A DNA stretch of 40,152 nt from assembly GCA_964443005.1 (NCBI GenBank), contig CAYUBI010000005.1, positions 1 through 40,152 on the forward strand, in the 5' to 3' direction. Numbering within the stretch: the stretch's first letter is position 1; the number at the start of each line of letters is the position of its first letter. A program made the position numbers and the translations under genes. This DNA comes from an uncultured Candidatus Marinamargulisbacteria bacterium. GTDB taxonomy: Bacteria > Margulisbacteria > Riflemargulisbacteria > GWF2-35-9 > CAYUBI01. The notes below the pieces were generated by a model, which had not been told where the DNA came from, searched no databases, and worked only from the letters and a program-made list of their open reading frames with translations. Shown here piece by piece: positions 183-32,244 of this stretch.

Positions 183-959
183 TCACAGTTTACTGGGAGT
201 CCGACAGACTCCTAGTAAATCTAATAGTCCGTTAATAATTGTTAATGGATGTGGCGGACAACCTGGAATATAAAGATTTATGGGATAGCGTGTTAAAAAT
301 TCTCGATAAATGGCAGGTGAGTTTGCAAAAAGTCCCCCGCTAATTGCACAGGTTCCTAAAAGGATAATTAGTTTGGGCGCTGGTGTTGCTGTATATGCAT
401 CTTCAATTGCTGATGCCATAGCTTTGGTAAAAGGGCCACTGATGATGAGCCCATCAGCATGACGTGGCGATGCTACAATATCAATTCCAAAGCGTCCAAT
501 GTCAAAGTTGACATTGGAACAAGCGTTCCATTCCAATTCACAGCCATTGCAGCTTCCTGCGCTAACATGTCGCAGTTTGAGTGAACGTCCGAAAATTTTA
601 TGTATGTCAGAAGAAAGCGGTTCTACAGTGATTTGCTTTTGCAAAATTGTTGACTGTTGGGTCACAATTAATTGATTACGTTGAGTTGTGGCAAGTCGAT
701 AATTAGTTGACCATATTATTGTGTTTGTTGTGCTATTTCGTTGACATTGGCCACAAAAAAGGCAACGGCCTAAATCTAGTTGTAAGGGTTTTTGTTTAAG
801 TGCAAATGTCGGGCATGTCCAGCTTGTAGATTCTGAATTTTCACCTATTGCAGCTTGAATGAGTGGAACGCCGCGAAATGGAGCTAATAAAGTTGCTTTT
901 CGAATATCCTTGATCGTATGACGTCGGTGTGTTAGTGCTAAAATAAGTTCGTTAAACAT
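183..959 (-). CDS. hyfI: Ehr/hydrogenase-4 small subunit (NuoB/HyfI-like) with N-terminal ferredoxin-like domain
   Basis: NuoB-family motifs SAGSCNGCELE, ASPRHADG, GTCAISGG and IPGCPPHP; N-terminal CPT...DLGRCLFCGQC. Confidence 0.9.
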   Translation of the reverse strand: MFNELILALTHRRHTIKDIRKATLLAPFRGVPLIQAAIGENSESTSWTCPTFALKQKPLQLDLGRCLFCGQCQRNSTTNTIIWSTNYRLATTQRNQLIVTQQSTILQKQITVEPLSSDIHKIFGRSLKLRHVSAGSCNGCELEWNACSNVNFDIGRFGIDIVASPRHADGLIISGPFTKAMASAIEDAYTATPAPKLIILLGTCAISGGLFANSPAIYREFLTRYPINLYIPGCPPHPLTIINGLLDLLGVCRTPSKL

Positions 960-980
960 GACTTCTCCATTGGATAAGCA

Positions 981-2477
981 TCATAAATCAAATCCAGCAT
1001 ACGATAAGCTAAAACTTTTGTTACATAAAGGGAAGTCTGAAATTGCATTGTTACGCATGGCTAGAGTTAAACCAAACCAATTATTAAATGAGGGATCTTT
1101 GATTTTGTAACTGATTAGTTTCCCTTGCTCATTCGTCATGGCAATATGTGCAATTTCGCCACGCCATCCTTCTGTAAGACCTACAACAATGCTGGATGGT
1201 TGTAACTGTATTTCTTTTTGTTGAATATTTGCAGTGAATGGTTCAGCTTTAAGTGCTTGTTCAATATAAAACAATGATTGTTTAATTTCAATATATCGAA
1301 GATAGGCTCTAGCAAAGATACCTCCTTTTTTTAATCGAACTTTGTCAATTGTAATTTTGCGATAAGCACCAAAAGGATGATCTGCGCGAATATCCATTGC
1401 AATATCAGAGGCACGTGCAACCAGTCCAACACATCCTAATTCGTATGCTTGTTTATTCGTTAGAATGCAATTATGCTCCATTCGTGACAATACAGTTGAT
1501 GAGCTGAACATTGTTTCGCTAACAATATCAACTTCGTTAGCAAGCCACTGAATTAATATATTCAGTTGTGAAATTTGTTCAAGCGATAAACTGGCCGACA
1601 TTCCGCCGATTTGAAGCAGACCTCGCCCAAAACGATTTCCGCACCAATTTAGAAAGGTGTTAATAACTCGCGTGCGAATAGCCCCAAAAATTGAATTGCC
1701 TAAAAGATATCCAACATCACCTGCCAATGCAGATAAGTCTGCAAGGTGCATTGCAATGCGTTCTAGTTCCAAGGCAATTGCTCGAGCATAATAAACAGAC
1801 ATTGGAATTGATATTCCTGATAAGGATTCCATGATTTGTATGTAGGTGCTTCCATGTGCTATGACTGAGTCACCAGCTATTGATTCAGCTAACAGTATCC
1901 CTTGATTTGTTGGCGCGTTCATGAGTAATGTTTCGATTCCGCGATGTTGGTACCCTAGTTGAATCTCTAAATGCATAACTGTTTCACCATGACATAAAAA
2001 TCGAAAATGACCAGGTTCAATTATTCCAGCATGAATAGGTCCAACGCCAACTTCGTGGCTGGCTTCACCTGTCATATGTAAAAAAGGATAGTTCGCTATT
2101 GCAGGAAATGTTGCTAGATCAGTAATTGGAAAACGAACGGGTTTAAGCCATGGATGGTTAATAGGTGTAATTCCCCAGGCTTCAAAAAGTTCGCGTTCAA
2201 CCATGTGAAAGGCAGGAATTTCTGGAGTTAATGCTGGGTAATTGCTGCAGAGTTGAAGTGAGGTTGTAGCCATCCACAGTTGAGATTGTTCATCATTTGC
2301 AAGCACAGCGAGTAATCCAATGGTTGTGTTTGATTCAGGATATCCCATCCAAGCGATCAGACGCCAGTCGTTTGTTTTCATGAGTGAGATTACCTGATCG
2401 CGTAAGGTTAATAGTGGAAATGTTGAAATATTTGATCGAGGTATGCAACGATAGTTTGATAAAATAAATTTCTTCAT
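981..2477 (-). CDS. hyfG: Ehr large subunit (NuoC/D-fused, HyfG/HycE-like), lacking Ni-binding cysteines
   Basis: ERELFE, VGPIHAGIIEPGHFRF, LGYQHRGIE, EGWRGE and KIKDPSFNNW motifs. The two CxxC motifs are replaced by ESIAGD and KSFSLSYAGFDL. Confidence 0.9.
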   Translation of the reverse strand: MKKFILSNYRCIPRSNISTFPLLTLRDQVISLMKTNDWRLIAWMGYPESNTTIGLLAVLANDEQSQLWMATTSLQLCSNYPALTPEIPAFHMVERELFEAWGITPINHPWLKPVRFPITDLATFPAIANYPFLHMTGEASHEVGVGPIHAGIIEPGHFRFLCHGETVMHLEIQLGYQHRGIETLLMNAPTNQGILLAESIAGDSVIAHGSTYIQIMESLSGISIPMSVYYARAIALELERIAMHLADLSALAGDVGYLLGNSIFGAIRTRVINTFLNWCGNRFGRGLLQIGGMSASLSLEQISQLNILIQWLANEVDIVSETMFSSSTVLSRMEHNCILTNKQAYELGCVGLVARASDIAMDIRADHPFGAYRKITIDKVRLKKGGIFARAYLRYIEIKQSLFYIEQALKAEPFTANIQQKEIQLQPSSIVVGLTEGWRGEIAHIAMTNEQGKLISYKIKDPSFNNWFGLTLAMRNNAISDFPLCNKSFSLSYAGFDL

Positions 2478-2479
2478 GA

Positions 2480-3928
2480 TTATAATCCTTTGGCTGCTTC
2501 TTGAATGATGTCAAATAAGCCTATTGGAAGGCCTAAGCCAATAATACTTAAGATGATTAAAAAGCAAAGTTGAGGCAAATACGCCAGTATCGACAGTTTA
2601 GAAAATTGGTTTATTATTGGTTCTTGATTTTTGGGCATTCGCCCAAAAATCATTCGAAAAATATGGCGTGTCATTCCTACGAAAATAATCACCAGCATCA
2701 TCAGTAATGCCAAAAGAATCCACGGATGATGGTTTTGAAAGAGTGCTAAAATTAATAAAAATTCACTGAGAAAAAGTGCAAAGGGTGGAAATCCGCTGAT
2801 TCCAGCAAACGAGAAGAGCCATAACCATCCGGTTAGCCAGTCACGTTGCATCAAACCCTTTACTTTGCGAATTTCATCTGTGTGATAATGTTGAACTATG
2901 TTGCCTGCTGTTAAAAAGAAGGAGGCTTTGTTAAATGAATGTGCTAGGGTATGAAGTAATGCTGCAATTGCGCCCCATCCTCCTACGCCAAGTCCCAGAG
3001 CCATTAATCCCATGTTTTCTACAGAGGAATAGGCTAGTAAACGTTTAAAGCTAGTAACACGTACAATATAGAGTGCACATACTGCAACAGACATTAGCCC
3101 CATGATAATTAACAGTGAATGGGCATAGTCAGCTAAACCTGCTTTGACCATTAAGCTGTCTAGGCGAAGGATACCCAGCCAAGCACCATTTAATAACGTA
3201 GCAGATAACATTGCAGACATAGGCGATGGCGCTTCTGAATGAGCATCTGGAAGCCATGCATGCATCGGTGCCAGACCCATTTTTGTGCCAAATCCAACCA
3301 GGATAAAAAGAAATGCTAGTTTTAACCAAAATGGCTGCAATGCGGGTGCGTGTAAATACAAGTCTGAAAAAAATAGCGATACACTATCGCCAGCGCCAAT
3401 GGAAAGCAAAATCATGCCAACAAAAGCTAACGAAATTCCAATTGAACAAATAAATATATATTTCCATGCAGCTTCCAATGCTTCAGGCGTGCGTTGATAA
3501 TAAATAAGATATGCAGTAGCTAGTGTAGTTAATTCAATAAATACCCATAAAAGTGCAAAATTGGCACTCATCAGGAGTCCATTCATTGCAAATAAAAACA
3601 AAAAAAAGAAAGTATCGTACAATCGTTCTTGCATTGGAGAATCGTTCCGATGTCGAAAATATGCAATTGAATATAGGCTAACGCCAAGTGTAACACAGCC
3701 AAAAATAAAGAGAAAAAATGCATTTAGCGTATCGCTGAAAAAATATTTTGTCCATTGGCAAGGGTAGTTTAGTAGAAAAATTGAGAGAGAAATCATGAAT
3801 GCTGCATACGCACTTGTCAAACATTTTCGAATAACTCCAGACGCGATTATCCAGCATACTGCTACGCCAATGAGAGGTAGTAATAAAAGTAATGGGAGGC
3901 CAAATGTTGTAATGATAGTGAAATTCAT
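2480..3928 (-). CDS. hyfF: Proton-conducting antiporter-like membrane subunit (HyfF-like)
   Basis: Hydrophobic; WVFIELTT, ALEAAWKY, GFGTKMGLAPMHAWLPDAHSEAPSP and KRLLAYSSVEN motifs. Confidence 0.9.
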   Translation of the reverse strand: MNFTIITTFGLPLLLLLPLIGVAVCWIIASGVIRKCLTSAYAAFMISLSIFLLNYPCQWTKYFFSDTLNAFFLFIFGCVTLGVSLYSIAYFRHRNDSPMQERLYDTFFFLFLFAMNGLLMSANFALLWVFIELTTLATAYLIYYQRTPEALEAAWKYIFICSIGISLAFVGMILLSIGAGDSVSLFFSDLYLHAPALQPFWLKLAFLFILVGFGTKMGLAPMHAWLPDAHSEAPSPMSAMLSATLLNGAWLGILRLDSLMVKAGLADYAHSLLIIMGLMSVAVCALYIVRVTSFKRLLAYSSVENMGLMALGLGVGGWGAIAALLHTLAHSFNKASFFLTAGNIVQHYHTDEIRKVKGLMQRDWLTGWLWLFSFAGISGFPPFALFLSEFLLILALFQNHHPWILLALLMMLVIIFVGMTRHIFRMIFGRMPKNQEPIINQFSKLSILAYLPQLCFLIILSIIGLGLPIGLFDIIQEAAKGL

Positions 3929-3934
3929 GTATTG

Positions 3935-4570
3935 TTAATCCTTTAAGCGAGTTAATGTTTGGACTTTGACATCTTGAAATGTGGACTGAATTTTCGTCAC
4001 AAATAAACCTAATAAATAGATGGCAATAAATACGTCTAATAATACACCTAAATTTACAATAATTGGCATATGGTAAGTTAATGACAAGGACAATAAAAAA
4101 ATTCCATTTTCAAGCATCATGTATCCCATAACATGGGTGATGATTTTTTTTCGTGTAACAATGATAAATAGTCCCATCATCATGGTAGAAACTGAAATTC
4201 CGAAAAATAAAGGATTTAAATCAATAGTGTGTGCAGTAGCCCAATAGGCTACGTAAAATCCAAATGCAAAAATGAGACTACTAATTACGAGGGAATAAAA
4301 CATGGGAATATCGGGTTCTTCTTCGCGTTGAATGTTATTTCGTAGAATTAAGCGATGTAAAAATATGGGAATTAATGTTGTTTTTATTCCAATAGTTTCG
4401 ATGCACAAAATAATTAATGTTAACATATCTGTATGTGCACTGTTCGTGATGACTAATAAAAATAGAAAAAATCCCTGTGCTGAGATTGCTTTGATATAGC
4501 TTTCTAGTCGTGTTGATAGTGACGCGTATAGCATCGTAGTTCCAAAAATTATGGTAAGCAGCCCAATCAT
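3935..4570 (-). CDS. hyfE: Hydrogenase-4 membrane subunit HyfE-like
   Basis: About 210 aa, hydrophobic, with GYMMLENGIF and ending LTRLKD; sits between hyfC and hyfF. Confidence 0.85.
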   Translation of the reverse strand: MIGLLTIIFGTTMLYASLSTRLESYIKAISAQGFFLFLLVITNSAHTDMLTLIILCIETIGIKTTLIPIFLHRLILRNNIQREEEPDIPMFYSLVISSLIFAFGFYVAYWATAHTIDLNPLFFGISVSTMMMGLFIIVTRKKIITHVMGYMMLENGIFLLSLSLTYHMPIIVNLGVLLDVFIAIYLLGLFVTKIQSTFQDVKVQTLTRLKD

Positions 4571-5478
4571 TGTAGTACACCCTGATGCATAAAAACTACG
4601 AGCGAAATGATAGTTAAAGCTAATGAAGTTATTAGAAAAATAAACTGAGGAACATGTATCATTCGAATACGTGCAAAAAAAGATTCAATAGTCCCAATAA
4701 CTACAGCTAGTCCGGTAATGATACTTGCTAAAATAATCCATGAAGTCCAGCCTAATTGCATGGGCGTTACCAAAGAGGCAATGAGTGTACCGAGCAACAT
4801 CATCATTAATGCATGCGAATAGTAGATCATTGCTAAGCTGGGCCCCGAGTAATCTAAAACCATAACTTCGTGAATCATTGTTAATTCTAAATGTGTTTGT
4901 GGATCATTAACAGGAATTCGTCCGGCTTCGACTAAAAGTAATATAAAAAGTGCTAAGGCTGTTAAACCTGAAACTAATCCAGCATTGGTTTGATGCATTA
5001 ATAGCATCATTCCGCTAAAAGATGACGATCCATTTAGCGTAGTTAATCCCGCTAATAATAGAAAAAATGCAGGTTCAGCTATAGACGAAAAAGTCATAAA
5101 CCGACTGACTCCCATGCCCTCAAAACTGCTGCCAGTATCCATAGCACCCAAGGCTAGCATCATTTTTCCCACAGCAGTTATTAACACAAATAGGAATATG
5201 TCGCCAGAAAATGAGACGATTGCCTGATGGTTAATAGGTATCCACACAGATGCCATTATGATGCTGATCATAAATACAATGGGTGCCCATTGGAAAATCC
5301 ATGAGGTGCTTGTGCTAATCACTTCTCCTTTGCGTAACAGTTTAAGAAAATCCCAAAAAGGCTGTAATAAGCAAGGGCCTTGCCTGCCTGTCCATAAAGC
5401 TTTGACACGCAGAATAATTCCCATTATCCAAAATGGCCCAATTATCCATGCTATTAATGTGAGAATAATGTGAATCAT
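4567..5478 (-). CDS. hyfC: NuoH/HyfC-like membrane subunit
   Basis: GRQGPCLLQPFWDFLKLLRK, DTGSSFEGMG and EAGRIPVNDPQTHLELTMIHE motifs. Start moved to ATG 5478, which forms an ATGA overlap with the hyfB stop. Confidence 0.88.
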   Translation of the reverse strand: MIHIILTLIAWIIGPFWIMGIILRVKALWTGRQGPCLLQPFWDFLKLLRKGEVISTSTSWIFQWAPIVFMISIIMASVWIPINHQAIVSFSGDIFLFVLITAVGKMMLALGAMDTGSSFEGMGVSRFMTFSSIAEPAFFLLLAGLTTLNGSSSFSGMMLLMHQTNAGLVSGLTALALFILLLVEAGRIPVNDPQTHLELTMIHEVMVLDYSGPSLAMIYYSHALMMMLLGTLIASLVTPMQLGWTSWIILASIITGLAVVIGTIESFFARIRMIHVPQFIFLITSLALTIISLVVFMHQGVLQ

Positions 5479-7463
5479 GAGTGTACCATTAGCCATATCA
5501 TATTTGCGATTAAAAATAATAAACCATACAAAATATATAACTGAATATTTCCGGTTTGGATCCAAGTAACGCTGCCTAACGAGCGAATAAGTTTACGAAT
5601 AATGGGATTAACTATGTATCGATCCATTATATCTGAAAATGCAGATTCGAAATGAGCTTTTTGAGGAAAAAACGTTTTAGGAATATATTGGGTTACAGAT
5701 TTAGATAGCAAACGATTGACTAATCCGAGTAATGGTTCAGAAAAAGATGCACCTGAATACTGCATATGAGGTGTTGTTGCACTATATCCGCAATCCCATG
5801 TTTTGGCTCGAGTTACTGGTTGATTTTTTCGGATCATCCCGCGTAATGCTGCTATAAGCATCATTAAGACGAGACTAACGAAAATCGCTATTGATAAGGT
5901 GGAAACACCTGTGTTATTGAGTGTAAACGAGCTAGTTATACCTGCATTGAGTGCGATCCAGCGTACTGGCTCGCAAATGAGCACTTTAAAAAAAAGCGAA
6001 GGTATAAAACCCATTGCTAAAAGAAGAAGCATTGGAATTGTCATTGCCATAATCATTAGCTGATGAGGGTCAGTTCCTTCTTTTCCAAATGTGCTGCGAG
6101 GTTGGCCTAAAAATACGATACTGATTGCTCGGGTAAAACTGAATAGAGTTAATATGCTAGTGAGTGCTACGATGCTGATTGAAAGAATTAATATCATTAT
6201 TTCTGATGCATCTGATCCTGAAAGACCCCCAAAAAGGCCTTGTAAGAGCAGAAATTTACTGATAACTAGACCAAAAGGTGGAAGTCCAGCTATAGCAATG
6301 GCTCCCATGATAAATAGTGCTGCAGTTTTGGGCATACGATGAATCAATCCACCCAGTTTTTCGATATCACGCGTGTTTGTTTGTTGTTGAACAGCACCTG
6401 CAGCAAAAAAAAGCACCATTTTCGCGAGTGAATGTCCGAAAATATGAAAAAAGACAGCGCCAAATCCTAGCAAAATAAGGGACTCATTAAGATTACGAAG
6501 TCCCATCATTCCTAGAGACAGTGCAATGCCGATAATCCCAATGTTTTCAATGCTAGAATAGGCTAATATGCGTTTGAGATTCTTTTTTGATAATGTATAA
6601 ATAATTCCCAAAATAGCCGTAATTAGGGATATTCCCAGCATTCCATGAATGATAAGCGGAGTTGGCGTACCTAACCACGAAAGCATTCGAAGTATGCCAT
6701 AAATCCCTAATTTAATCATCACGCCTGACAATAATGCTGAGATAGGGGAGGGTGCTTCTGGATGTGCTAGCGTAAGCCATGTATGTAAAGGCATCCATCC
6801 TGCTTTTATGCCAAATCCGCAACCTAATAGGATAACAACTGCTAGAGTTAGCGTTGGATGACTTGTTAAATAGGGGCCAAAATTGGAAAAGGTGAATTGT
6901 CCTGTTCGCTGAGTTAGCAATAATAAACCAACTAAAATAAAAAGATAACCAATGTGCATTGCAACCAAATAATATAAGGATGCATTGGTAACTTCTTTGC
7001 GTCCATGTTCTAGGCTTATAACAAAAAAGGAGGATAAGGTCATCATTTCCCATACCCATAAAAAGGCAATAACATGGTGTGTTATTGCAACCATTATCAT
7101 GGATGCACATAAAATAACAAAAAAAACTCGGTGCATTCGTTTGTCAGCTTCTTGGGCATGAACCCTAGATAAATAACCGACCATATACATGCTACAGAGT
7201 CCAGTACCCAGTGCAATAATAACCAAAAAAAATGCACCTAATGGATCAATAATTAGTGGAATTTCACCATATAATTTGCCCAGTTCCCATATTGTTTGAA
7301 GCGGTTTCCCAGTTAACAAGACATTTCCGGCGCTGGCTACAACTGCGCCAGAACCTGCCAGTATTAATGTTAAAAATATAAATTTTATAAAACGAGTCCA
7401 CTGTGCAATTGATGTTGCACCTGCTAGTAAAATAAGACACAGTCCTATCCAGAAACTAGTCAT
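5475..7463 (-). CDS. hyfB: NuoL/HyfB-like proton-conducting membrane subunit
   Basis: WEMMTLSS, KAGWMPLHTWLTLAHPEAPSP, KRILAYSSIENIG, TWDCGY and QTGNIQLY motifs. Confidence 0.9.
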   Translation of the reverse strand: MTSFWIGLCLILLAGATSIAQWTRFIKFIFLTLILAGSGAVVASAGNVLLTGKPLQTIWELGKLYGEIPLIIDPLGAFFLVIIALGTGLCSMYMVGYLSRVHAQEADKRMHRVFFVILCASMIMVAITHHVIAFLWVWEMMTLSSFFVISLEHGRKEVTNASLYYLVAMHIGYLFILVGLLLLTQRTGQFTFSNFGPYLTSHPTLTLAVVILLGCGFGIKAGWMPLHTWLTLAHPEAPSPISALLSGVMIKLGIYGILRMLSWLGTPTPLIIHGMLGISLITAILGIIYTLSKKNLKRILAYSSIENIGIIGIALSLGMMGLRNLNESLILLGFGAVFFHIFGHSLAKMVLFFAAGAVQQQTNTRDIEKLGGLIHRMPKTAALFIMGAIAIAGLPPFGLVISKFLLLQGLFGGLSGSDASEIMILILSISIVALTSILTLFSFTRAISIVFLGQPRSTFGKEGTDPHQLMIMAMTIPMLLLLAMGFIPSLFFKVLICEPVRWIALNAGITSSFTLNNTGVSTLSIAIFVSLVLMMLIAALRGMIRKNQPVTRAKTWDCGYSATTPHMQYSGASFSEPLLGLVNRLLSKSVTQYIPKTFFPQKAHFESAFSDIMDRYIVNPIIRKLIRSLGSVTWIQTGNIQLYILYGLLFLIANMIWLMVHS

Positions 7464-8085
7464 TTTTTCTCCAGGACTGTTCCATAATTTCGAGTAAAGC
7501 TAAAACATCTTGACTTCGTGGTTTTTTTTTAAGTTCATTTGCAAATTCAGGTTGTTCACATGCAAAGGTTAATTTAATTAAAAGATCCATAAATCTTGTT
7601 CGATTGGGGCTTTGAATAAAAATGACACTATGAATAGAATTATTGATAGTTAGGGTATTGTTGAGTCGCAACGCATTGCAATAACCGATACATACGGTTT
7701 CATTGCTGTAATCTGTTAGTTTTGGCATTAATGGATGAGGTATACTGCATCCATTTCGATGAAAATTGTAAAATGGAGGGTATTTTTTTTGTGTGACTTC
7801 TTCACGAGTGATAGTGATTGGAAGTGAAAAACAACTTTTTTCATGAATAACTTTTGCAAATCGAATTGGATGTTTTAGGGATTCTGTTTCTCGGATGATA
7901 TCAATAGTAATGGGAATATTATGAAGCATAATCCATGATTGTAATGCTGCTTTTGAAAATCGATATTGATGTTGAATTTGATACGTAGGTATAGAGGCTT
8001 CGTTAATCCATTTATAAATTGTTTTTTCAGAAACATGTAAAATGTTAACCAAATCATTGATTTTGTAATCCATTGGTTCTCCCAT
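7456..8085 (-). CDS. Excisionase-type HTH DNA-binding domain fused to a (degenerate) PTS EIIA(Ntr/Fru)-like domain; likely regulator of the Ehr operon
   Basis: N-terminal DLVNILHVSEKTIYKWI...IPTYQIQHQYRF (HTH_17-like). C-terminal GCSIPHP corresponds to EIIA GIAIPH. Overlaps the hyfB start. Confidence 0.75.
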   Translation of the reverse strand: MGEPMDYKINDLVNILHVSEKTIYKWINEASIPTYQIQHQYRFSKAALQSWIMLHNIPITIDIIRETESLKHPIRFAKVIHEKSCFSLPITITREEVTQKKYPPFYNFHRNGCSIPHPLMPKLTDYSNETVCIGYCNALRLNNTLTINNSIHSVIFIQSPNRTRFMDLLIKLTFACEQPEFANELKKKPRSQDVLALLEIMEQSWRKND

Positions 8086-8231
8086 TTGATTTCACTGATC
8101 TTTAGATTGCCAAACGGAAAGATTATACATACATGCAGGGCGCAAAGCAATAAGAATTTTCGGTTTCCTTTACGTTGACCATGATAAAAAATGCATTTAT
8201 ACTTAGGGTACACTAATTATAAGGGTAAAAG

Positions 8232-10193
8232 ATGGAAGTTAATTATAAAATTCGAAATATTGAAGAAATTATTGCAGATGGTCTTACTTTTTTATTAAAT
8301 AAAACTCAAGCAGTTGTAGCAATTGTTTTAGTTATTATGACTGTTTTAATGTATGCATTGTTTTATCTTACAGGAATGCAGCTTCCTGTTCAAAGTTACG
8401 TGTTATTTTGGTTTGGGGCTATTATTATGATGGTTGCAATTTATGCTAGTCAATATCTTGCGCTGATCCGTCCTAAGCGGCTTTCAAAAGAGTTTTTACA
8501 AGATCGGTGGCGTGTGTTTTCTGATTTTTTTAGTCGTGGGTTGTGGATTGGTTTTACTCTTTTAATCATTCCATTGCTTGGGTTGATAGTAGGCATCCGT
8601 ATATTTGGAATTAATTCAATTCTTTTTTATTTATTTGGCGTTAGTGTCGTTTCGTTTTTTAGTCGGATTGGTGGGGGATTATTTGCAAAAGGTGCAGATA
8701 TGGCGTCACACATGATGATTGACGAGGTGTCTGATGTGGGGCCTGGTGATATTCGCAATGCTGCTGTTGTTGCAGATTATATTGGCGATCATTTAGGGAA
8801 TTCGATTGCAGTAGGTGTGGATTTAGTTGAATCATTCTTAATTGTATTGTTGAGTGTTGTTTTGTTAATGATAAGTGATCATGGTCAATCGATTCTTTCG
8901 ACTATTGTTCGAGATAAATTATTGCTTTATCCAATTCTTTTGGCTTTTGGTGGTACACTAATTGGTTATGTTTCTGGAAAAATATTGACCTTGTTTCGGC
9001 CGCGTTGTATTGAAACGAATTTGGTATATTCAATTTATTTGGCAGCAGTTATAACTATGCTAGTTGCTGCATTATTAATTAAATGTATGCCAATTGATTA
9101 TTCTCAATTTATTCCTTTTTGGGGTTTTTCTGCGAAATATGCTCCATTTTTGGCCATATGCTTGGGATTGATTTTGGCGATTGTGATTGGAATAAATAGT
9201 GATTATTTTACGTCATCATATCATCATCCTACTCGAAATATTGCTTCGTTTGCTCAGTATAATGCAGTTATTTCAATTTTGATGGGAATGTCTTACGGAA
9301 TGTTTTCAAGCTTGCTTCCTATTTTGTTTAGTACTTTGTTTATGTTGCTAGTATTTAAAATTGCAGGAATTTATGGAGTTATTATGTTGGGCTTAGGTTT
9401 GTTATCTGTCACGTCTGTTATTATTGGTGCCAATTGTTTTGCACCGTTTGCAGATAATGCCTTTGGTATTGCAAAAGTATGCAAATTAGATTCAGCAACA
9501 ATTAGCAATGTTGAAGCCTTGAACTCCATGGGAAATACAACGGTTGCTTTTGGGAAAAGTTTTTCAGTTGGATCTGTGCTGATTGTTTCATTTACTTTAT
9601 TTATTTTATTTATTCGTTTATCAGGAATTCATTATATGGATATTTCGGTGTTTCATCCGTTGTTGATTGCATCGTTACTTGCAGGGGGTATGTTACCCTT
9701 TCTTTTTGCCGCAGTTTTGCTACGGGCAGTGTCGTATACTTCGGTCGCAATGCTGGAAGAAAGTAAGCGTCAGTTTTTAGAAATTCCATTTTTAAAAGAA
9801 GGTAAAGTGTTCCCAAATGTGAGTGGATTTGTTGAATTGATTGGGTTCCCGATATTAAAACGAATGATTATTCCGAGTGTTATTGTCATTTGTATTCCAA
9901 TTGCAATTGGAATTTTTTTGGGAAAGGAAGTGTTGGCTGCTGTATTGTTTGGGTCTATGATGAGTGGAATATATTTATCGATTCATTATTCTATGACTGG
10001 TGAAAGTTTGGATCATGCAAAAAAATTTATTGAAATTGGAAATTATGGTGGAAAAGGCACTCCGACTTATCGTAATGCTGTAGTTGCAGATATTTTTGGA
10101 GATTCGCTAAAAGATTTGATTGGGCCATCAATCAATAATTATATTAAATTAATGTTAATTATTTCGATTGTGATTATTCCCTTGATTTTGTAA
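8232..10193 (+). CDS. hppA: Membrane-integral Na+/H+-translocating pyrophosphatase homolog, highly divergent (possible pseudo-enzyme)
   Basis: Colinear with mPPase motifs: RIGGGLFAKGAD, DIRNAAVVADYIGD, ADNAFGI, GNTTVAFGK, DHAKKFIE and GDSLKDLIGPSINNYIK. Many TM helices. Confidence 0.85.
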   Translation: MEVNYKIRNIEEIIADGLTFLLNKTQAVVAIVLVIMTVLMYALFYLTGMQLPVQSYVLFWFGAIIMMVAIYASQYLALIRPKRLSKEFLQDRWRVFSDFFSRGLWIGFTLLIIPLLGLIVGIRIFGINSILFYLFGVSVVSFFSRIGGGLFAKGADMASHMMIDEVSDVGPGDIRNAAVVADYIGDHLGNSIAVGVDLVESFLIVLLSVVLLMISDHGQSILSTIVRDKLLLYPILLAFGGTLIGYVSGKILTLFRPRCIETNLVYSIYLAAVITMLVAALLIKCMPIDYSQFIPFWGFSAKYAPFLAICLGLILAIVIGINSDYFTSSYHHPTRNIASFAQYNAVISILMGMSYGMFSSLLPILFSTLFMLLVFKIAGIYGVIMLGLGLLSVTSVIIGANCFAPFADNAFGIAKVCKLDSATISNVEALNSMGNTTVAFGKSFSVGSVLIVSFTLFILFIRLSGIHYMDISVFHPLLIASLLAGGMLPFLFAAVLLRAVSYTSVAMLEESKRQFLEIPFLKEGKVFPNVSGFVELIGFPILKRMIIPSVIVICIPIAIGIFLGKEVLAAVLFGSMMSGIYLSIHYSMTGESLDHAKKFIEIGNYGGKGTPTYRNAVVADIFGDSLKDLIGPSINNYIKLMLIISIVIIPLIL

Positions 10194-10218: not shown

Positions 10219-10989
10219 ATGGAAAAAAGCAACTTACGGCGACCGATTATGGCAGGAAATTGGAAAATGAACATGACAGTATCACAGGCTAAAATTTTGG
10301 CTAAAGATATTGTCGAAGCAGTTAAGGGAATTACTACGTGCGATATAGTCGTTGCACCTTCATTTGTTTGTTTGCAGGCTGTGCAAGAAATTATTTGTGG
10401 CACAAATGTTTGTTTAGCAGCGCAGAATGTTTTTTGGGAAGATGTGGGTGCATTTACAGGTGAAATTTCTGCTGATATGTTGATTGATTTAGGCGTTACT
10501 TATGTGATTGTTGGTCACTCTGAGCGTCGTCAGTTTTTTGCGGAAACTAATGAAACTGTTAACAAACGTGTTCACCAAGCGTTTAAAAAAAAGCTAATTC
10601 CTATTGTTTGTGTTGGCGAAACCTTGGCTGAACGAGAAGAAGGCAAAACGTGTGATGTTGTTAAACAACAGATTGTTGGCGCGTTGGCTGGTGTGTCAGT
10701 GACTGATATGCATCAGGTGATTGTTGCATATGAACCGGTTTGGGCTATTGGAACTGGAAAAACGGCAACAAATACTCAGGCTAATGATGTGCATGTTGCT
10801 ATTCGAAAGTATATTGAAGAATTATATAATTCCACGATTGCGGAGTTCGTAAGAATTCAATACGGTGGTTCAGTAAAACCTGATAATATTCAGGGATTAA
10901 TGACTGAATCGAGTATTGACGGGGCTTTGATTGGTGGTGCATCACTGAATGCTGAAAGTTTTGCAAATATTGTAAAATTCTCAAGATAA
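10219..10989 (+). CDS. tpiA: Triosephosphate isomerase
   Basis: AGNWKMN, GHSERR, AYEPVWAIGTG, YGGSVKP and IGGASL motifs; RBS AAGGAGG. Confidence 0.98.
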   Translation: MEKSNLRRPIMAGNWKMNMTVSQAKILAKDIVEAVKGITTCDIVVAPSFVCLQAVQEIICGTNVCLAAQNVFWEDVGAFTGEISADMLIDLGVTYVIVGHSERRQFFAETNETVNKRVHQAFKKKLIPIVCVGETLAEREEGKTCDVVKQQIVGALAGVSVTDMHQVIVAYEPVWAIGTGKTATNTQANDVHVAIRKYIEELYNSTIAEFVRIQYGGSVKPDNIQGLMTESSIDGALIGGASLNAESFANIVKFSR

Positions 10990-11004: not shown

Positions 11005-11967
11005 ATGATTAGTTATAAGGAACTTGGTTTAGTAAGTACGAAAGAGTTGTTTAACAAAGCAGTCAAAGGTGGGTATGCAATTCCTGCATATAATTTTAAT
11101 AATATGGAACAAATGCAAGCAATTCTTCAAGCGTGTGTTGAAACAAAATCTCCTGTTATTTTACAGGTTTCTTCAGGTGCTCGGAAATATGCGAATGAAA
11201 CATTACTTCGGTATATGGCGCAAGGAGCAGTTCAGTACGTGAAAGAATTGGGATATTCAGTTCCTATTGTATTACATCTTGATCATGGCGATACTTTTGA
11301 ATTGTGTAAATCGTGTATTGAGTTTGGTTTTTCATCTGTGATGATTGATGGATCGCATCATTCATATGAAGAAAATATTGTGTTAACTAAAAAAGTTGTC
11401 GAGTTTGCGCATGCTCATGATGTAACTGTAGAAGGTGAATTAGGTGTATTAGCAGGAGTAGAAGATGACGTTAAAGCTGAAGATCATGTATATACACAAC
11501 CGGACGAGGTAGAAGATTTTGTATCTCGAACAGGTGTAGACTCGTTAGCTATTGCGATTGGAACCAGTCATGGTGCATTTAAATTTAAACCTGGAACAGA
11601 TCCTAAGATTCGTTTAGATATTTTGGCTGAAGTCGAGCGTCGAATCCCGGGTTTTCCCATTGTGCTTCATGGGGCATCTTCGGTTCCTGAAGATTTGGTA
11701 GCAATGATTAATCAGTATGGTGGGAAAATGGATCATGCTATTGGTATTCCTGAAGATGAGCTGCGAAAGGCTGCAAAATCTGCTGTATGCAAAATTAATA
11801 TTGATTCTGACGGTCGCCTAGCTATGACTGCTTCGATTCGAAAAGAATTTGCAGAGCATCCCAGTGAATTTGATCCTCGTAAATATTTGGGGCCTGCACG
11901 AGAGGCCTTGAAAAAACTTTATATTCATAAGAATATTAATGTTTTAGGATCTGCTGGAAAAGCGTAA
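11005..11967 (+). CDS. fba: Class II fructose-1,6-bisphosphate aldolase
   Basis: LHLDHG, SSVMIDGS, VEGELG, AIGTSHG, VLHGAS and KINIDSD motifs. Confidence 0.97.
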   Translation: MISYKELGLVSTKELFNKAVKGGYAIPAYNFNNMEQMQAILQACVETKSPVILQVSSGARKYANETLLRYMAQGAVQYVKELGYSVPIVLHLDHGDTFELCKSCIEFGFSSVMIDGSHHSYEENIVLTKKVVEFAHAHDVTVEGELGVLAGVEDDVKAEDHVYTQPDEVEDFVSRTGVDSLAIAIGTSHGAFKFKPGTDPKIRLDILAEVERRIPGFPIVLHGASSVPEDLVAMINQYGGKMDHAIGIPEDELRKAAKSAVCKINIDSDGRLAMTASIRKEFAEHPSEFDPRKYLGPAREALKKLYIHKNINVLGSAGKA

Positions 11968-11985: not shown

Positions 11986-13197
11986 ATGTGGACTACTTTT
12001 AAAGGCAAAAAAGTTAATATTCGGCGAATTGGAATTTTGACAGGTGGCGGTGATTGTGCTGGCCATAATGCAGTTATTGCAGGTTTATTGCGGCGTGTTC
12101 ACCAAGCAAATGCATTGTTGCCATGTGATGAGAAAATGGAGTTGATTGGGTTGCAGGAAGGCTGGAAATCATTGACGCGCGATATAGATGTTGAGGCCAA
12201 TTTGATTGGAGTTCAGCTAACAATGGATGATATTGAGGAGTCCTTTAAACAAGCTGGAACTATTATTTATTCTTCGCGAACCAATTTGTTTTCCAAAGAA
12301 AATATAGCAAAAAATGCACCTCAAAAAGCAATTGATAATCTAAAAAAAATGAATATTGATTGTTTGGTTGTTTTAGGTGGAGACGATACGCTAGGTGCTG
12401 CTGGAAAAATGGGTAAACAATTTGAATTTCCAATGTTTGGGGCACCTAAAACAATGGATAATGATGTGTTTGGCACAGATCGAACCTATGGATTTGATTC
12501 TGCAGTTGTGGAATCAGTTCATTTTTTAAAAAATATTCGAACAACAACGCGTTCACACAAACGAGTATTTATTGTTGAATTGATGGGGCGCCATGCAGGC
12601 TGGGTATCTCTTTATGCAGCAGTTGCAGAAGGTGCTGATGTAACGTTGTTGCCTGAAGAAGAAATCAGCATGGATAAATTATTTGCTCAGGTTCGCAAGA
12701 TGATGGCTGTGAAAGGGTGGGGAATTATTGTGGTTTCTGAAGGCGCACGGTTATTTGATAAACGCTATTCTGAAAAGCTAAATCAACGTCATCAGGAATT
12801 GCTAGATGCGGTTATTAGTCAAAAAAAATATGCAGTTTTAAAAGCAATGCACGAAATGCCGAAAAAATTAGATTCATTTGGAAATGAGCAATTGGGCGGA
12901 ATTGGTCAGTACCTATATTCAATTCTTGAACATCATGTACCGGATTTTGAATATCGATTGCAAATATGTGGACATGCTATTCGAGGAGGAGAAGCCAATG
13001 TTGCTGATCGCTTGTTAGGATTGCAGTTTGGTGATGCGATTTTTGATTATATGAAAGTCGGACAATTTGGCGTGTATCCAGGATTACAAGGTACGGAAAT
13101 TGTTTCAAATGAGTTAACTGAAGTAAAAGGTGGACGGTTTATTGATATTGAGAAAGATCGACTTTATCCGATGAAGGACATGGTTAATTTCTATTAA
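11986..13197 (+). CDS. pfkA: 6-phosphofructokinase family, predicted PPi-dependent
   Basis: GILTGGGD, GGDDT, PKTMDND and VELMGRHAG motifs. GGDD plus PKT is the established PPi-donor signature. Confidence 0.92.
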   Translation: MWTTFKGKKVNIRRIGILTGGGDCAGHNAVIAGLLRRVHQANALLPCDEKMELIGLQEGWKSLTRDIDVEANLIGVQLTMDDIEESFKQAGTIIYSSRTNLFSKENIAKNAPQKAIDNLKKMNIDCLVVLGGDDTLGAAGKMGKQFEFPMFGAPKTMDNDVFGTDRTYGFDSAVVESVHFLKNIRTTTRSHKRVFIVELMGRHAGWVSLYAAVAEGADVTLLPEEEISMDKLFAQVRKMMAVKGWGIIVVSEGARLFDKRYSEKLNQRHQELLDAVISQKKYAVLKAMHEMPKKLDSFGNEQLGGIGQYLYSILEHHVPDFEYRLQICGHAIRGGEANVADRLLGLQFGDAIFDYMKVGQFGVYPGLQGTEIVSNELTEVKGGRFIDIEKDRLYPMKDMVNFY

Positions 13198-21203: not shown

Positions 21204-22205
21204 TTAGAATAAACGGTATAGTGACAATAGGTAAAAACAGGCTGCAGAAAGCATGGATGAAATTGGAATTGTAATTAACCACGCCCAAATAATTTGTCGT
21301 GCAGTAATCCAGCGAACATTATTCACATGTTCAACAGTACCAACGCCCATAATAGCGCCTGCAATGACATGAGTTGTGCTAACAGGAATGCCAGCATGTG
21401 CTGTTCCAATTAGAACAATTCCAGCAGCTGTTTCAGCGCAAAACCCTTCCATCGCACGAATTTTTGTGATACTGGTTCCCATTGTTTTGACGATTCTCCA
21501 TCCACCAAAAATTGTACCTAATGCAATTGCTGCGTAACAAACAATAATAACCCACGAATCGATATGGAATTGTTTGTTGATTCCAGCAGTGAATAATGTT
21601 AATGCAATGATTCCCATTGTTTTTTGTGCATCATTGGTGCCATGCCCAATACAATAAAAGGTAGCAGAAATTAGCTGTAGATTCCGAAATAGTGTTTTTG
21701 CCTTTTGCGGCTTTAATTTTTTCGATAAAGATAGAACAAGAATTGTAAAGCAAATTGCTCCGAATGCGCCGAGTATGGGTGCAATAATTATAAAAGCAAA
21801 TATTTTAATGACGCCGTGCAATAAGATTACTTGAGTTCCTGCAGACGCAACTCCTGCACCGATTAATCCGCCGATTAGTGCATGACTACTTGATGTTGGA
21901 ATGCCAAAATACCATGTGATTAAATTCCAAATGATAGCACCAACAAGAGTTGCTAAAATAACGTGTAACGTAATAGAATCGATTTGAACAACGCCTTTGC
22001 CAATCATTTTCGCAACTGCAGTTCCAAATCCAAAAAAACCAACAAAATTTGCAGCACCTGCTAAAAATACGGCTTGAAGAGGTGTTAATGTACGAGAAAC
22101 AACAATTGTTGCTATAGCATTTGCAGCGTCATGAAATCCATTGATGAAGTCGAATAACAGAGCTGCAGCAATTATAATAATAACAATAGTGAGCGTTGAA
22201 AACAT
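21204..22205 (-). CDS. pit: Inorganic phosphate transporter (PiT family)
   Basis: NGFHDAANAIAT, GIPTSSSHA, HGTNDAQK and GIPVSTTH signature motifs. Confidence 0.95.
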   Translation of the reverse strand: MFSTLTIVIIIIAAALLFDFINGFHDAANAIATIVVSRTLTPLQAVFLAGAANFVGFFGFGTAVAKMIGKGVVQIDSITLHVILATLVGAIIWNLITWYFGIPTSSSHALIGGLIGAGVASAGTQVILLHGVIKIFAFIIIAPILGAFGAICFTILVLSLSKKLKPQKAKTLFRNLQLISATFYCIGHGTNDAQKTMGIIALTLFTAGINKQFHIDSWVIIVCYAAIALGTIFGGWRIVKTMGTSITKIRAMEGFCAETAAGIVLIGTAHAGIPVSTTHVIAGAIMGVGTVEHVNNVRWITARQIIWAWLITIPISSMLSAACFYLLSLYRLF

Positions 22206-22849
22206 TAAGCTTGCTTTACTTTAATGCCACGAATAATTTTTCCGACATAATCAACAGAATCTACAACATTTTCAAGGTGTTCAATGACTTCTTTAAGCCT
22301 AATAATATCTACGGGATCCATTTTTTTATTAAAAAGTTCTGCCATACAAATTTGAAATAAATCATCAGCTTCGTTTTCTAGAATATGCATTTTTGCCTGA
22401 ATTTGTTGCACATTACTATTAGCTTCTAGCTCTTTGACTAGTTGAACCATTAGTTGTCCAATTGAGACAATGATATCTGTAAATATGAGAATGTTGGGAG
22501 TAATTTTTTCAAGTTTATAAATTTCAATTTTTTTTGCAAGATTATATAAAATATCTATAGCTCGATCAATTTTAATTGCAAGTGTATGAATATCTTCGCG
22601 ATCAATGGGTGTAATAAATGTTTGATAAAGCTCATCAATCATTTGTTTCTCAATGGCATCTCCGCGCATTTCACATTCTTTAATCGCTAATACTTTGAGC
22701 TTTTTTTCATCATCACGTGATTGTTCTAAATGTGTCATTAATTCACGAAAAATAATGGCTGCTTCCACAAAACAAGTAGCTTGATCATTCATATATTTGA
22801 AAAATTTTGTTTCTCTGGGAAGTAGAAAATCGAGTAATTTAAATTTCAT
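22205..22849 (-). CDS. DUF47 / PhoU-like phosphate transport regulator
   Basis: E.RGD, TFITPIDREDI and LENEAD motifs; 1-nt overlap with pit. Confidence 0.92.
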   Translation of the reverse strand: MKFKLLDFLLPRETKFFKYMNDQATCFVEAAIIFRELMTHLEQSRDDEKKLKVLAIKECEMRGDAIEKQMIDELYQTFITPIDREDIHTLAIKIDRAIDILYNLAKKIEIYKLEKITPNILIFTDIIVSIGQLMVQLVKELEANSNVQQIQAKMHILENEADDLFQICMAELFNKKMDPVDIIRLKEVIEHLENVVDSVDYVGKIIRGIKVKQA

Positions 22850-27681: not shown

Positions 27682-27801
27682 AATGTTGATCCTTTCTAAA
27701 TATAGACTACCCCCAATGCATGATGGATCATTAAAATTTATAAGAAATTGATATTGTTAATAATTCTGATTCATCTAACAATATATCGGAAGTAAATATT
27801 G

Positions 27802-30800: not shown

Positions 30801-31731
30801 ATGACAAATCTGTATCATTTTCAATCGTAAGAAAGCATTTTTTTGTTAAATTATATAATTCATTTAATTCGACCTCTGGGTCATTTTGATAAATACTATC
30901 AGGTTGTATTGTTTGTTGGTTTATTAATTGGATTGTTTTTTGATAAGTAGCAGAAACTTCTATAATATCGTGTGGAGAAAAATAGTGATGTTCATTAACA
31001 ACATTAGCGTGAATGTAAGTATGAGCTGCTAAAAAATTAGTAATACAATCAAGTAGTATTTTTGGGTTTTTAGTATCTAATTTGTGTGTGAGTATTTGTA
31101 ACTTTATTAATTTATGAAATTGGTTTATGATATGAATCAGTTCTATTTTTCGTACATTAACAGATAATTGATTTTTCAGTTGATTATATTTTTCTTGTAA
31201 TGAAATGATGCTTTTTGAAACATTGATGCTTTCTTCAATGAATCGAATATAAAGTGCACGTTTAGCTGAGTTTTTTAACGAATCGATTTCCTTGGGTTGT
31301 TCAAAATATTGTTTAGATAAATTGTTTAGTTTTTTTTCAGCTTGTTGAAAAAGATTAAAGTTATTTTTATGGTCTTGTGAAAAACAAAAAATAATATAAT
31401 GAATCAGCATCCATTCTTCAAATTGATTGGGAATATATTTTTGAGCATTATCCAGCAATTGAATAATATCAGTTTCAGTTTGATAACATTGCTTAAAGCT
31501 AGCTATTAGTTCGTCATTTGTGATTGGCTTTTTTTTATGAGATTTTCCCGATGTTTGACTGAAATTCATTGATGATTCATTAAATGAATGAAACATTCGG
31601 CGATGCTTTTCAATACTTTCTATGAATTTATTTTTTTCAGATTCGAGCATTGTTTCAGTGAAACTAATGTGTTTATAATTTATTTGCATTCTTAATTTGT
31701 CCTTGTAATAATTATGAATTGAAATTGCCAT
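27802..31731 (-). CDS. Large hypothetical alpha-helical protein
   Basis: 1309-aa uninterrupted ORF with RBS AAGGA; N/I/K/E/L-rich; no motif I recognise. Confidence 0.75.
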   Translation of the reverse strand: MAISIHNYYKDKLRMQINYKHISFTETMLESEKNKFIESIEKHRRMFHSFNESSMNFSQTSGKSHKKKPITNDELIASFKQCYQTETDIIQLLDNAQKYIPNQFEEWMLIHYIIFCFSQDHKNNFNLFQQAEKKLNNLSKQYFEQPKEIDSLKNSAKRALYIRFIEESINVSKSIISLQEKYNQLKNQLSVNVRKIELIHIINQFHKLIKLQILTHKLDTKNPKILLDCITNFLAAHTYIHANVVNEHHYFSPHDIIEVSATYQKTIQLINQQTIQPDSIYQNDPEVELNELYNLTKKCFLTIENDTDLSFRNDFYVKLYAQIYYCILAYKNQMISHVVLSIIKNESNDEFKKIGLKIAAIVYSDHNLDKPVINKSDLFPKFEAYQRIIEQFFVKETNHNQFEIIPNLTTKQISTAFSMISDDLHKNQIITLFINASITSLSFISEYKRCFKASLEKDFQLLFIENNELCKRNPTNPQAYENLLALLNRYDRQLENKLLAREKPFNSIKENGIEKAVTLFADVDFYIPIILNHLVNFCLATKNFLDIDLPLVILKNIYQNDNDFISYVKKRHPELTNSQLLNKTEFLIQKMIYNSETIPNELKFMKKNIEKAKRFTFTIIDIIDKLIKDHTALEILQNVIDLNDSENFIVNKRSLFFLGILKAICLFNRGETNTLNHFWTNEFSKLITADTNIDISIKKAQTFLKNYSDMYDEAFMVNLKQACLTLKNTDSRFRIILQTLFPAKNDIEENTHYIINEINKTNINSNLIIFINYFIAFAHENRDTLTISNQNALRVLFLVMNDRRLNHETLCQLDSAIIYMSTNKLVNVPTEDIQYYRETRRAFPKLSPVEINEKMIEIKTTFFHRENPMFPNDLVIPDEMQTYKNMNNLEKKHYLLSYYISKTKNFMSLFGKEQIQDYLLQIIETNEFDSNQILPELIKWLKSNYQSIPIIVWEKINNENSNYRHFPDDIINYYDKKLKAYSHYFNPHLVKTIISDLIHQNISAIKIEKELQKIVLTQTLAEIYPLTIFFILRKNFCSDFFNYLFTESNKTNLEIHLRNFIFKATATAEKFTQHDISQIISEKNIWANYVINPTNNTLRFKTNALHLIKEDPKITLFEKEQLIELLTTKQQLKFPEHFIKALKRSSDNQPEIYIELIEIFELFNELLMQPQYENESKVKTDEEYHAQTAVIQAFEDSINNPDNLDNSYITKPNESNFSLYFEKPLIDFIAKIYINEKPHYDEKFDTETIKFVDEYLDMIDWIKTENKPEALLDHFKQLSQAFFRVHLEHIYQFLENSEKRLTHSNLSMD

Positions 31732-31808
31732 AATTAACTGAATAGTTCCTTGTTCTCTGCAATATAACGATTAATTTATCGTAACAAGAGTTGAAAAATT
31801 TCACCTAT

Positions 31809-32241: not shown

Positions 32242-32244
32242 AAT

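Follow-up and report, generated by a model that had tools for sequence, protein, structure and literature searches.

A conserved membrane pyrophosphatase paralogue with an apparently crippled hydrolytic site beside glycolysis genes in Candidatus Margulisbacteria

Membrane-bound pyrophosphatases (mPPases) are treated as one functional class, that of pyrophosphate (PPi)-driven H+ or Na+ pumps. In the review PMC6882861, the mPPase subunit is described as having 16 transmembrane (TM) helices, and the nucleophilic water as being activated by an aspartate pair, D6.43 and D16.39. The same text assigns the gate of the Na+-PPase type to residues S5.43, D6.50, E6.53, S6.54, D/N16.46 and K16.50, and its Table 3 gives a family-wide conservation of 99.9% for D5.77 and 98.1% for D11.50. 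Here we describe a homologue that departs from this pattern. It is encoded in a 40,152-nt stretch of DNA (the window) from an uncultured Candidatus Marinamargulisbacteria bacterium (assembly GCA_964443005.1, contig CAYUBI010000005.1), where an uninterrupted open reading frame (ORF) with an ATG start, 8232..10193 (+), specifies a protein of 653 aa.

The best explanation of the data as a whole, to which we assign a probability of roughly 0.6, is that this is a selection-maintained, poorly or non-hydrolytic membrane protein, derived from an mPPase and tied to genes of glycolysis. It is very probable that the protein has been retained in an impaired state and that the housekeeping pyrophosphatase (PPase) of the cell is another enzyme. 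In the literature searched, no description was found of inactive or degenerate mPPase homologues, or of mPPases in Margulisbacteria. The terms ‘PPase’ and ‘hppA’ are absent from the main text of PMC6349859, the supplements of which may list these genes, and neither ‘inactive’ nor ‘pseudo’ is used in PMC6882861. This pseudo-enzyme-like branch of the mPPase family, for which the canonical paralogue of the genome serves as a clean internal control, is apparently undescribed.

Hydrolytic centre, lid and gate

The protein matches PF03030 with an E-value of 1.1e-116 (391.5 bits against a gathering cut-off of 29.7), residues 4-648 lying on profile positions 21-645 of 645. By sequence, its closest solved structure is the H+-PPase of Vigna radiata (Vr; E 2.2e-79, 271 bits), and the Na+-PPase of Thermotoga maritima (Tm) is matched at 4.8e-74. 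An AlphaFold2 (AF2) model made from an 11-sequence alignment (pLDDT 84.6, pTM 0.87) was compared with solved structures by Foldseek, giving TM-scores of 0.88-0.89 to VrPPase and TmPPase and of 0.84-0.89, with E-values down to 2e-29, over the Vr, Tm and Pa pumps. Given the profile match, the sequence matches to solved structures and the scores of the model, the predicted mPPase fold is not in doubt. The protein nevertheless falls under the cut-off in 12/12 of the NCBIfam mPPase equivalog models listed, the best being NF001960 (389.2 vs 546).

Residue numbers were taken from a HMMER alignment to the Vigna radiata pump, which has no gaps across any quoted motif, and were cross-checked in the review PMC6882861 (Table 3 and its residue lists). 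The hydrolytic centre is likewise defined as the 16 residues listed there. Twelve of them are present: K5.58 (K153), D5.61 (D156), D6.35 (D182), D6.39 (D186), D11.57 (D408), N12.53 (N435), D15.61 (D594), K15.64 (K597), D16.31 (D620), D16.35 (D624), K16.38 (K627) and D16.39 (D628). The other four are gone, with D5.65 replaced by H160, E5.76 by P171, D5.77 by G172 and D6.43 by N190. The water-activating pair is thus incomplete, N190 standing at 6.43 and D628 being kept at 16.39, and the complete centre of a competent ion-pumping mPPase (EC 7.1.3.1 / 7.1.3.2) is not found. The coupling funnel keeps 7/8 of its residues, D11.50 (now N401) being the sole loss. Further changes are D530 to N431, W to L593 and N to H595.

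In Vr numbering, the replacements are D257 to H, K261 to D, E263 to V, E268 to P, D269 to G, D287 to N, D500 to N, D530 to N, W690 to L and N692 to H. The two 5-6 loop positions K261 and E263 were added by us to the residues listed in the review. Retained are R242, K250, D253, D270, R272, N273, D279, D283, D294, S298 and D507, together with N534, K541, D691, K694, D723, D727, K730, D731, N738 and K742. Across residues 153-176, the end of TM5 and the 5-6 loop, K5.58, D5.61 and the D6.26-x-R-N element survive alongside five changes (D5.65 to H, K261 to D, E263 to V, E5.76 to P and D5.77 to G). The TM12 motif LNSMGNTTVAFGK has exchanged D530 for N and kept N12.53 and K12.50. From TM15 to TM16, D15.61, K15.64, D16.31, D16.35, K16.38, D16.39, N16.46 and K16.50 are all kept, in columns that are invariant in the alignment of the clade formed by this protein and its orthologues.

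The gate, in turn, is complete in this protein and of the Na+-PPase type, comprising S138 (S5.43), D197 (D6.50), E200 (E6.53), S201 (S6.54), N635 (N16.46) and K639 (K16.50), with the gate glutamate in the Na+-PPase position, 6.53. At position 12.46, where A or K separates K+-dependent from K+-independent mPPases, the protein has V438 and its orthologues S, T or A. Since this residue is not lysine, the protein is, by sequence, closer to the K+-dependent lineage.

An initial annotation made from the DNA alone had anticipated much of this. The motifs that it quoted all occur in the translation in the order given, its reading of ‘neither Ala nor Lys’ at the K+ determinant agrees with V438, and its T. 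maritima number for the missing aspartate, D236, is borne out by Table 3 of PMC6882861, in which Tm D243 is 6.50 and 6.43 is accordingly D236. The comparison that it proposed with PF03030 and with the TmPPase and VrPPase structures matched both family and fold and upheld the losses. Its phrase ‘dismantled hydrolytic site’ described the residue changes correctly but goes too far: because 12/16 residues of the centre remain, the site as read from the alignment is better called crippled.

The protein also differs from other mPPases at its N-terminus. It has 15 predicted helices rather than 16, TM1 being absent, as the initial annotation had proposed from an in-frame TAA at 8226. This stop codon is present, the 146-nt spacer 8086-8231 holds no hydrophobic reading frame, and the first 20 positions of the PF03030 profile have no match in the protein. 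Throughout the clade the N-terminus lacks a hydrophobic peak and is short, with about 144 residues ahead of R5.50 where short canonical forms have 167-188. On the same strand, the orthologous gene is directly preceded by a tRNA-Lys(CTT) gene in 7/7 loci examined. On account of the stop codon, the empty spacer, the short N-terminus across the clade and the abutting tRNA gene, the 15-helix form is a genuine trait of the lineage. The stop codon, spacer and tRNA gene likewise rule out a longer N-terminus or a separate upstream TM1 exon, a TM1 peptide elsewhere in the genome not having been searched for.

Conservation in the order and across the phylum

A word-indexed search of 5.8 billion proteins gave a best identity of 34% to the window protein, and an exhaustive search of 1.84 billion representatives recovered four members of the clade, P0053 (42%), P0054, P0055 and P0057. 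A whole-genome search found an orthologue in 11/11 other genomes of the order (33-42% identity, 380-523 bits, no stops), so that a degenerate copy with an open frame is present in 12/12. The substitutions are shared, as the initial annotation had suggested might be found: position 6.43 is N in 8/12 and S in 4/12, and losses extend to D11.50 in 12/12, D5.65 in 11/12 and D5.77 in 10/12. The residue pattern, recurring as it does in 11 further orthologues, is not due to chance. Kept in 12/12 are K5.58, D5.61, D6.35, D6.39, D11.57, N12.53, K12.50, K15.64, the whole TM16 motif, E6.53, N16.46 and K16.50. The 5-6 lid is variable in the clade, with an 8-residue deletion in two orthologues.

None of 127 sequences with the full core set of residues carries the changes of the clade. 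These 127 canonical sequences have 99 columns with a conservation of 90% or more; the clade keeps 46 of them, has moved to a new conserved residue in 11 and is variable in 42. Examples of new conserved residues at the former active site are G to A at 404, G to N at 189 and H to Y at 613. Residues 145-205, which span the end of TM5, the loop and TM6, are 54% identical in five orthologues of different families, as against 97-100% among the canonical copies of the same genomes. By this comparison of sequences, the loss of constraint is centred on the catalytic region.

Selection was estimated as the ratio of nonsynonymous to synonymous substitution rates (dN/dS) by the method of Nei and Gojobori, on six close pairs with frames taken stop to stop. 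The degenerate copy gave 0.021 for genomes G001/G009, 0.037 for G002/G010 (dS 0.48, the cleanest pair) and 0.08-0.12 for four further pairs; the canonical paralogue in the same genomes gave 0.027-0.10. The canonical pairs G002-G010 and G007-G011, which are of different paralogue types, and three deep pairs with saturated dS were omitted. At depth the degenerate copy evolves faster, with 41% identity between G000, the genome of the window, and G007 compared with 75% for the canonical copy.

This faster evolution, and the long branches that go with it, are what would be expected of a relic on its way to loss; an artefact of annotation or assembly might also be considered. Neither a broken frame nor neutral evolution was found, and the intact frames and low dN/dS rule out decay to a pseudogene. 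The absence of stops extends from the order to 20/20 further copies from the phylum, synteny is conserved, and the gene sits on a 40-kb contig whose neighbours and composition are ordinary. The chance that relic or artefact explains the gene is close to negligible. The purifying selection foreseen by the initial annotation is therefore present, and its ‘repurposed protein’ stands in so far as the gene is retained and not decaying; with 12/16 residues of the centre surviving, some hydrolysis may persist.

Related copies are found well beyond the order. The phylum set comprised 146 Candidatus Margulisbacteria genomes, with 75 PF03030 matches beyond the matches listed. A match is present in 134/146 genomes, and the scores are bimodal. 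A sample of 20 full-length, low-scoring copies (300-430 bits) has open frames in 20/20 and has lost 2-14 of 18 core positions, at least five in 19/20. The clade of the window is the least decayed branch, and TM1 is kept in most other degenerate copies.

In FastTree analyses, the order-level clade has a support of 1.0 and a second degenerate clade 0.99, the two being neighbours in the unrooted tree. The branch parting both from canonical sequences has a Shimodaira-Hasegawa-like support of 0.87. With midpoint rooting, the degenerate clades lie near the root on long branches. Fragments were left out, namely P0179, P0191 and can_G005 from the first tree and only can_G005 from the second. Because the branch lengths make long-branch attraction possible, the case for a common origin rests also on the shared link to tpiA described below.

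Among 201 homologues, 53 lack at least two core positions, a number that includes the 12 copies of the order and three fragments. Some of these core-deficient sequences branch within canonical clades, which makes repeated degeneration probable. Nine homologues have lost 4-11 of 18 core positions; P0075, P0086 and P0087 branch inside canonical clades, and P0161, P0077, P0185, P0142, P0153 and P0190 lie outside the two degenerate clades. Their placement suggests independent degenerations outside the lineage studied here.

Pyrophosphatase complement and glycolytic neighbourhood

The genome of the window (1.95 Mb, 103 contigs, 91% complete) holds a second PF03030 gene, as had been proposed at the outset. 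It lies on contig C3 (17489-19582) and encodes a 797-aa protein with a score of 593.6 bits and K at 12.46. This paralogue keeps 17/18 core positions, passes NF001950 (1369 vs 826 bits) and does not adjoin tpiA. No soluble PPase of family I (PF00719) or family II (PF02833) was found in the genome. Across the order, a canonical-scoring hppA accompanies the degenerate copy in 11/12 genomes, the canonical type varying between about 740 aa and about 800 aa. Genome G003 (95% complete) is the only one of the 12 without a canonical hppA, and the only one with PF00719.

A similar complementarity is seen in the phylum, where PPases were tallied by hand and ‘canonical-scoring’ means a best PF03030 E-value of at most 1e-140. 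PF00719 occurs in 4/104 genomes with a canonical-scoring copy, compared with 15/28 with only low-scoring copies; it is found in 0/2 ambiguous genomes and in 0/12 genomes without a PF03030 match. When genomes with only low-scoring copies are restricted to those at least 90% complete, PF00719 is present in 9/10, G069 being the exception. Since genomes with only a low-scoring copy thus mostly carry the soluble enzyme, the degenerate copy seems not to meet the need of the cell for PPi hydrolysis.

The same distribution bears on the suggestion of the initial annotation that the degenerate protein forms a heterodimer with a canonical mPPase. It might be a non-catalytic partner that regulates the pump, as dead paralogues activate some enzymes. 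A canonical copy is at hand in 11/12 genomes of the order, that of the window included, and mPPases are described in PMC6882861 as dimeric with communication between subunits. The residues listed at the dimer interface already differ between the Tm and Vr pumps (PMC6882861). An obligate heterodimer is disfavoured by G003 and at least nine other phylum genomes, each at least 90% complete, that carry the degenerate copy only. Moreover, the order has no single type of canonical partner, and the degenerate gene never adjoins the canonical gene in the loci seen. A regulatory partnership is accordingly an improbable explanation.

The degenerate gene is followed by tpiA, a class II fructose-bisphosphate aldolase gene (fba) and a gene of the phosphofructokinase (PFK) family (Table 1). 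No terminator-like site was found in the 25-nt gap before tpiA. All of the NCBIfam ATP and PPi models score the PFK-family gene below cut-off; it carries GGDD and PKTMDND motifs, which we take to be those of the PPi-dependent PFK type. Synteny is kept, as the initial annotation had thought worth checking: tpiA-fba lies downstream in 10/11 order loci, and the eleventh stops at a contig edge. Elsewhere in the phylum, tpiA is directly downstream in 16/20 degenerate loci, compared with 1/36 canonical loci. Two loci do not follow this division. L052 (G088:C23) is followed by tpiA-fba although its mPPase is fully canonical and, in the tree, falls among ordinary canonical copies and not in the degenerate lineage. 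L075 (G061:C21) is a 787-aa low-scoring copy without a tpiA neighbour, which has lost two core residues, including D6.43 (to N), and also has D6.50 changed to G. These loci are possible intermediates or separate events.

The conserved link to tpiA can also be read as pointing to another ligand. The remaining Mg/phosphate cage might bind, carry or act on a glycolytic sugar phosphate, inorganic phosphate (Pi) or polyphosphate, and the 11 positions with a changed but conserved residue line the former active site. The adjacency of the genes could, however, be historical, and such a change of ligand strikes us as rather improbable.

Table 1. Features of the degenerate mPPase gene and its surroundings, in window coordinates
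Feature	Position	Strand	Basis
Promoter-like site TTGACC-17 nt-TATACT, 29 nt 5' of start codon	8175..8203	+	consensus scan, 10/12 matches, weak
In-frame TAA two codons 5' of ATG	8226..8228	+	sequence
Degenerate mPPase paralogue, 15 predicted TM helices, no TM1	8232..10193	+	ORF, PF03030, AF2 model, Foldseek
TM5 end and 5-6 loop, KGADMASHMMIDEVSDVGPGDIRN, residues 153-176	8688..8759	+	VrPPase alignment, residue table, PMC6882861 residue list
TM6 motif DYIGDHLGN, residues 182-190; D6.35, D6.39 kept, D6.43 = N190	8775..8801	+	alignment, residue table
Gate motif DLVES, residues 197-201; D6.50, E6.53, S6.54	8820..8834	+	alignment, residue table
TM11 motif NCFAPFADN, residues 401-409 (NCFAP 401-405); D11.50 to N, G to A, D11.57 kept	9432..9458	+	alignment
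TM12 motif LNSMGNTTVAFGK, residues 430-442 (LNSMGNTTV 430-438; FGKS K442)	9519..9557	+	alignment
TM15-TM16, residues 593-639 (LDHAKK 593-598, GDSLKD 623-628, K639)	10008..10148	+	alignment, residue table
tpiA, 25 nt downstream of degenerate mPPase gene	10219..10989	+	PF00121
Class II fructose-bisphosphate aldolase (fba)	11005..11967	+	PF01116
PFK-family gene, GGDD and PKTMDND motifs	11986..13197	+	PF00365, sequence

Promoter-like sites are not enriched in the region, 21 being found against a shuffle mean of 24.1. Upstream of the gene, a protein of 209 aa is encoded at 7456-8085 (-). Its N-terminal domain is of the HTH_17/excisionase type and weakly matches the MADS1 antiphage HTH, and its C-terminal 150 aa have no family. 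The gene overlaps by 8 nt the start of a hydrogenase-like operon and is not conserved 5' of the orthologues, where the tRNA-Lys gene takes its place. The operon, at 183-7463 (-), is a six-gene set resembling complex I or group 4 [NiFe]-hydrogenase, with 20-kDa, fused 30/49-kDa, two antiporter-like and NADHdh/HyfC-like subunits and one ORF without a Pfam match. Antiporter-like subunits also adjoin canonical hppA elsewhere, at loci L027, L029 and L030 of three relatives.

Further along the window, at 21204-22849 (-), a PHO4/PiT-family phosphate transporter of 333 aa, a second phosphate-related membrane gene of the window, is followed by a 214-aa ORF. At 25105-31731 (-) are two very large ORFs without a Pfam match, of 858 and 1309 aa; the longer lies inside a stretch of low GC content (0.27-0.30, 28001-34000) and the shorter just upstream, the rest of the window being at about 0.32-0.40. 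An ECF-type sigma factor is encoded at 32245-32748. At 32896-34376 (+), an AbiEii-type nucleotidyltransferase toxin of 280 aa follows an overlapping 213-aa ORF that has no Pfam match and is probably its antitoxin.

Interpretation and comparison with described systems

The explanation that we favour begins with an old paralogous mPPase lineage in Candidatus Margulisbacteria, which would have given up efficient PPi hydrolysis and been kept by purifying selection. The degenerate gene would be transcribed with the lower-glycolysis genes tpiA and fba and then the PFK-family gene. PPi hydrolysis for the cell would be left to the canonical hppA of contig C3 or, where relatives lack hppA, to the soluble family I enzyme. 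The acidic and lysine cage on TM5, 6, 11, 12, 15 and 16 retains 12/16 ligands, D16.39 and the three lysines among them, and is still a probable binding site for Mg-PPi or Mg-phosphate. With the 5-6 lid and D6.43 gone, hydrolysis after binding may be slow or absent. Binding could then serve to gate or modulate cation movement through the E6.53/N16.46/K16.50 core or, alternatively, report PPi or Pi status to the membrane. In PMC6882861, charge transfer in the pumps is said to need binding and not hydrolysis, and a binding-driven gate or sensor is for that reason mechanistically plausible. This mechanism of binding without hydrolysis is tentative, and we think it may well prove wrong.

Several observations weigh against this explanation. 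The clade shows no variation in 12/16 residues of the hydrolytic centre, D16.39 and the three lysines included; a slow PPase with one general base is therefore conceivable, and their retention would be expected if some phosphoryl chemistry persists. In five of six pairs, dS exceeds 1, which qualifies the dN/dS values given above. The complementarity between PPases is a correlation among genomes that share ancestry; the ‘low-scoring only’ class was set by E-value, residues having been inspected in 10/28 such genomes. G069 (91% complete) carries the degenerate copy only and has no PF00719 or PF02833 match. Another 12/146 genomes of the phylum, members of family f6 and others, four of them more than 90% complete, match neither PF03030 nor PF00719, and so not every genome needs one of the two.

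A further difficulty concerns the gate. Its description as an ‘apparently intact ion gate’ in the initial annotation is true of the window protein but does not extend to the clade. In 5/12 orthologues, all of family f3, R5.50 is replaced by Q, D6.50 by N, S6.54 by V or A and S5.43 by A; D6.50 and S6.54 are kept in 7/12 and S5.43 in 5/12. Judged by sequence, the clade as a whole is not constrained to keep a working Na+ gate. Any common mechanism of ion conduction is weakened by these replacements, and such a role is given modest weight here.

Alternatively, the clade may be a divergent but active subfamily, a pumping PPase with a slimmed-down site in which D16.39 alone activates water and fewer Mg2+ ions are bound. 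Such a pump would account for the retention in the window protein of 12/16 hydrolytic, 7/8 coupling-funnel and all gate residues, for the strong purifying selection and for the place of the gene among those of PPi-linked glycolysis. It is harder to reconcile with the loss of D6.43 and D11.50 in 12/12 and of D5.77 in 10/12, the last being 99.9% conserved in the family according to Table 3 of PMC6882861, or with a lid that tolerates deletion. Nor do its changes appear in any of the 127 full-core sequences, and genomes with only the degenerate copy mostly add a soluble PPase. An active pump is therefore unlikely, if worth keeping in mind.

The favoured explanation, that of a retained protein with little or no hydrolysis, can be extended to the whole phylum. 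Its degenerate copies would then be pseudo-pyrophosphatases that bind PPi or Pi without turnover and either gate a cation path or signal PPi status, coupling membrane energetics to PPi-dependent glycolysis; this would explain the old operon link to tpiA. On the sequences at hand we regard so broad a generalization as doubtful.

The consequences reach beyond one genome. A selected lineage without the water-activating aspartate and the lid, which does not replace the PPase of the cell, would demonstrate that the fold lends itself to uses other than pumping. If the phylum-wide generalization is correct, a role other than pumping would have been found for the mPPase fold for the first time, and a primary pump would have given rise in nature to a ligand-gated protein. 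The degenerate copies would serve as natural mutants for studying the coupling of binding, ion movement and hydrolysis, and the presence of canonical and degenerate copies in one genome offers a clean experimental comparison. In public annotation, the degenerate copy P0132 is named ‘sodium/proton-translocating pyrophosphatase’; to count the degenerate gene as an energy-conserving PPase would be a mistake, and metabolic reconstructions of Margulisbacteria would need correcting.

The logic of a duplicate that loses turnover has parallels elsewhere. A duplicated transporter or enzyme gives up turnover yet persists for a binding or regulatory role. UhpC is an example of a transporter-derived sensor, and in the deoxyhypusine synthase of trypanosomatids a dead-paralogue subunit is reportedly retained. 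These families are unrelated to mPPases, and no signalling partner or complex of the window protein was found here.

Closer comparisons lie within the family. TmPPase (PDB 4AV3, 5LZQ, 8B21), a K+-dependent Na+-translocating enzyme, belongs to the same Pfam family and has the same fold (TM-score 0.89). The two proteins share the glutamate 6.53 in a D-L-x-E-S gate, N16.46, K16.50, the absence of a lysine at 12.46 and 12/16 of the hydrolytic centre. Unlike TmPPase, to which it is 27-28% identical, the window protein lacks TM1, D5.65, E5.76, D5.77, D6.43 and D11.50, and it has V at 12.46. The Vigna radiata H+-PPase (PDB 4A01, 5GPJ, 6AFS), the best solved-structure match by sequence (271 bits, TM-score 0.88), differs in having all catalytic residues and in placing its glutamate at 6.57; the window protein has E6.53 and I at 6.57. 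The canonical C3 paralogue shares family and genome with the window protein, but over residues 145-205 its orthologues are 97% identical, compared with 54% in the degenerate lineage. The other tpiA-linked degenerate copies of the phylum (L068-L087; P0056, P0068, P0132 and others) form the neighbouring branch of the unrooted tree. They differ from the window clade in having lost 5-14/18 core residues in 19/20 cases, usually with K5.58, D11.57, K12.50, D15.61 and E6.53 among them. Common to both groups are the change of W to L before D15.61, the G to A/S change in TM11, the loss of D11.50 and the presence of tpiA downstream.

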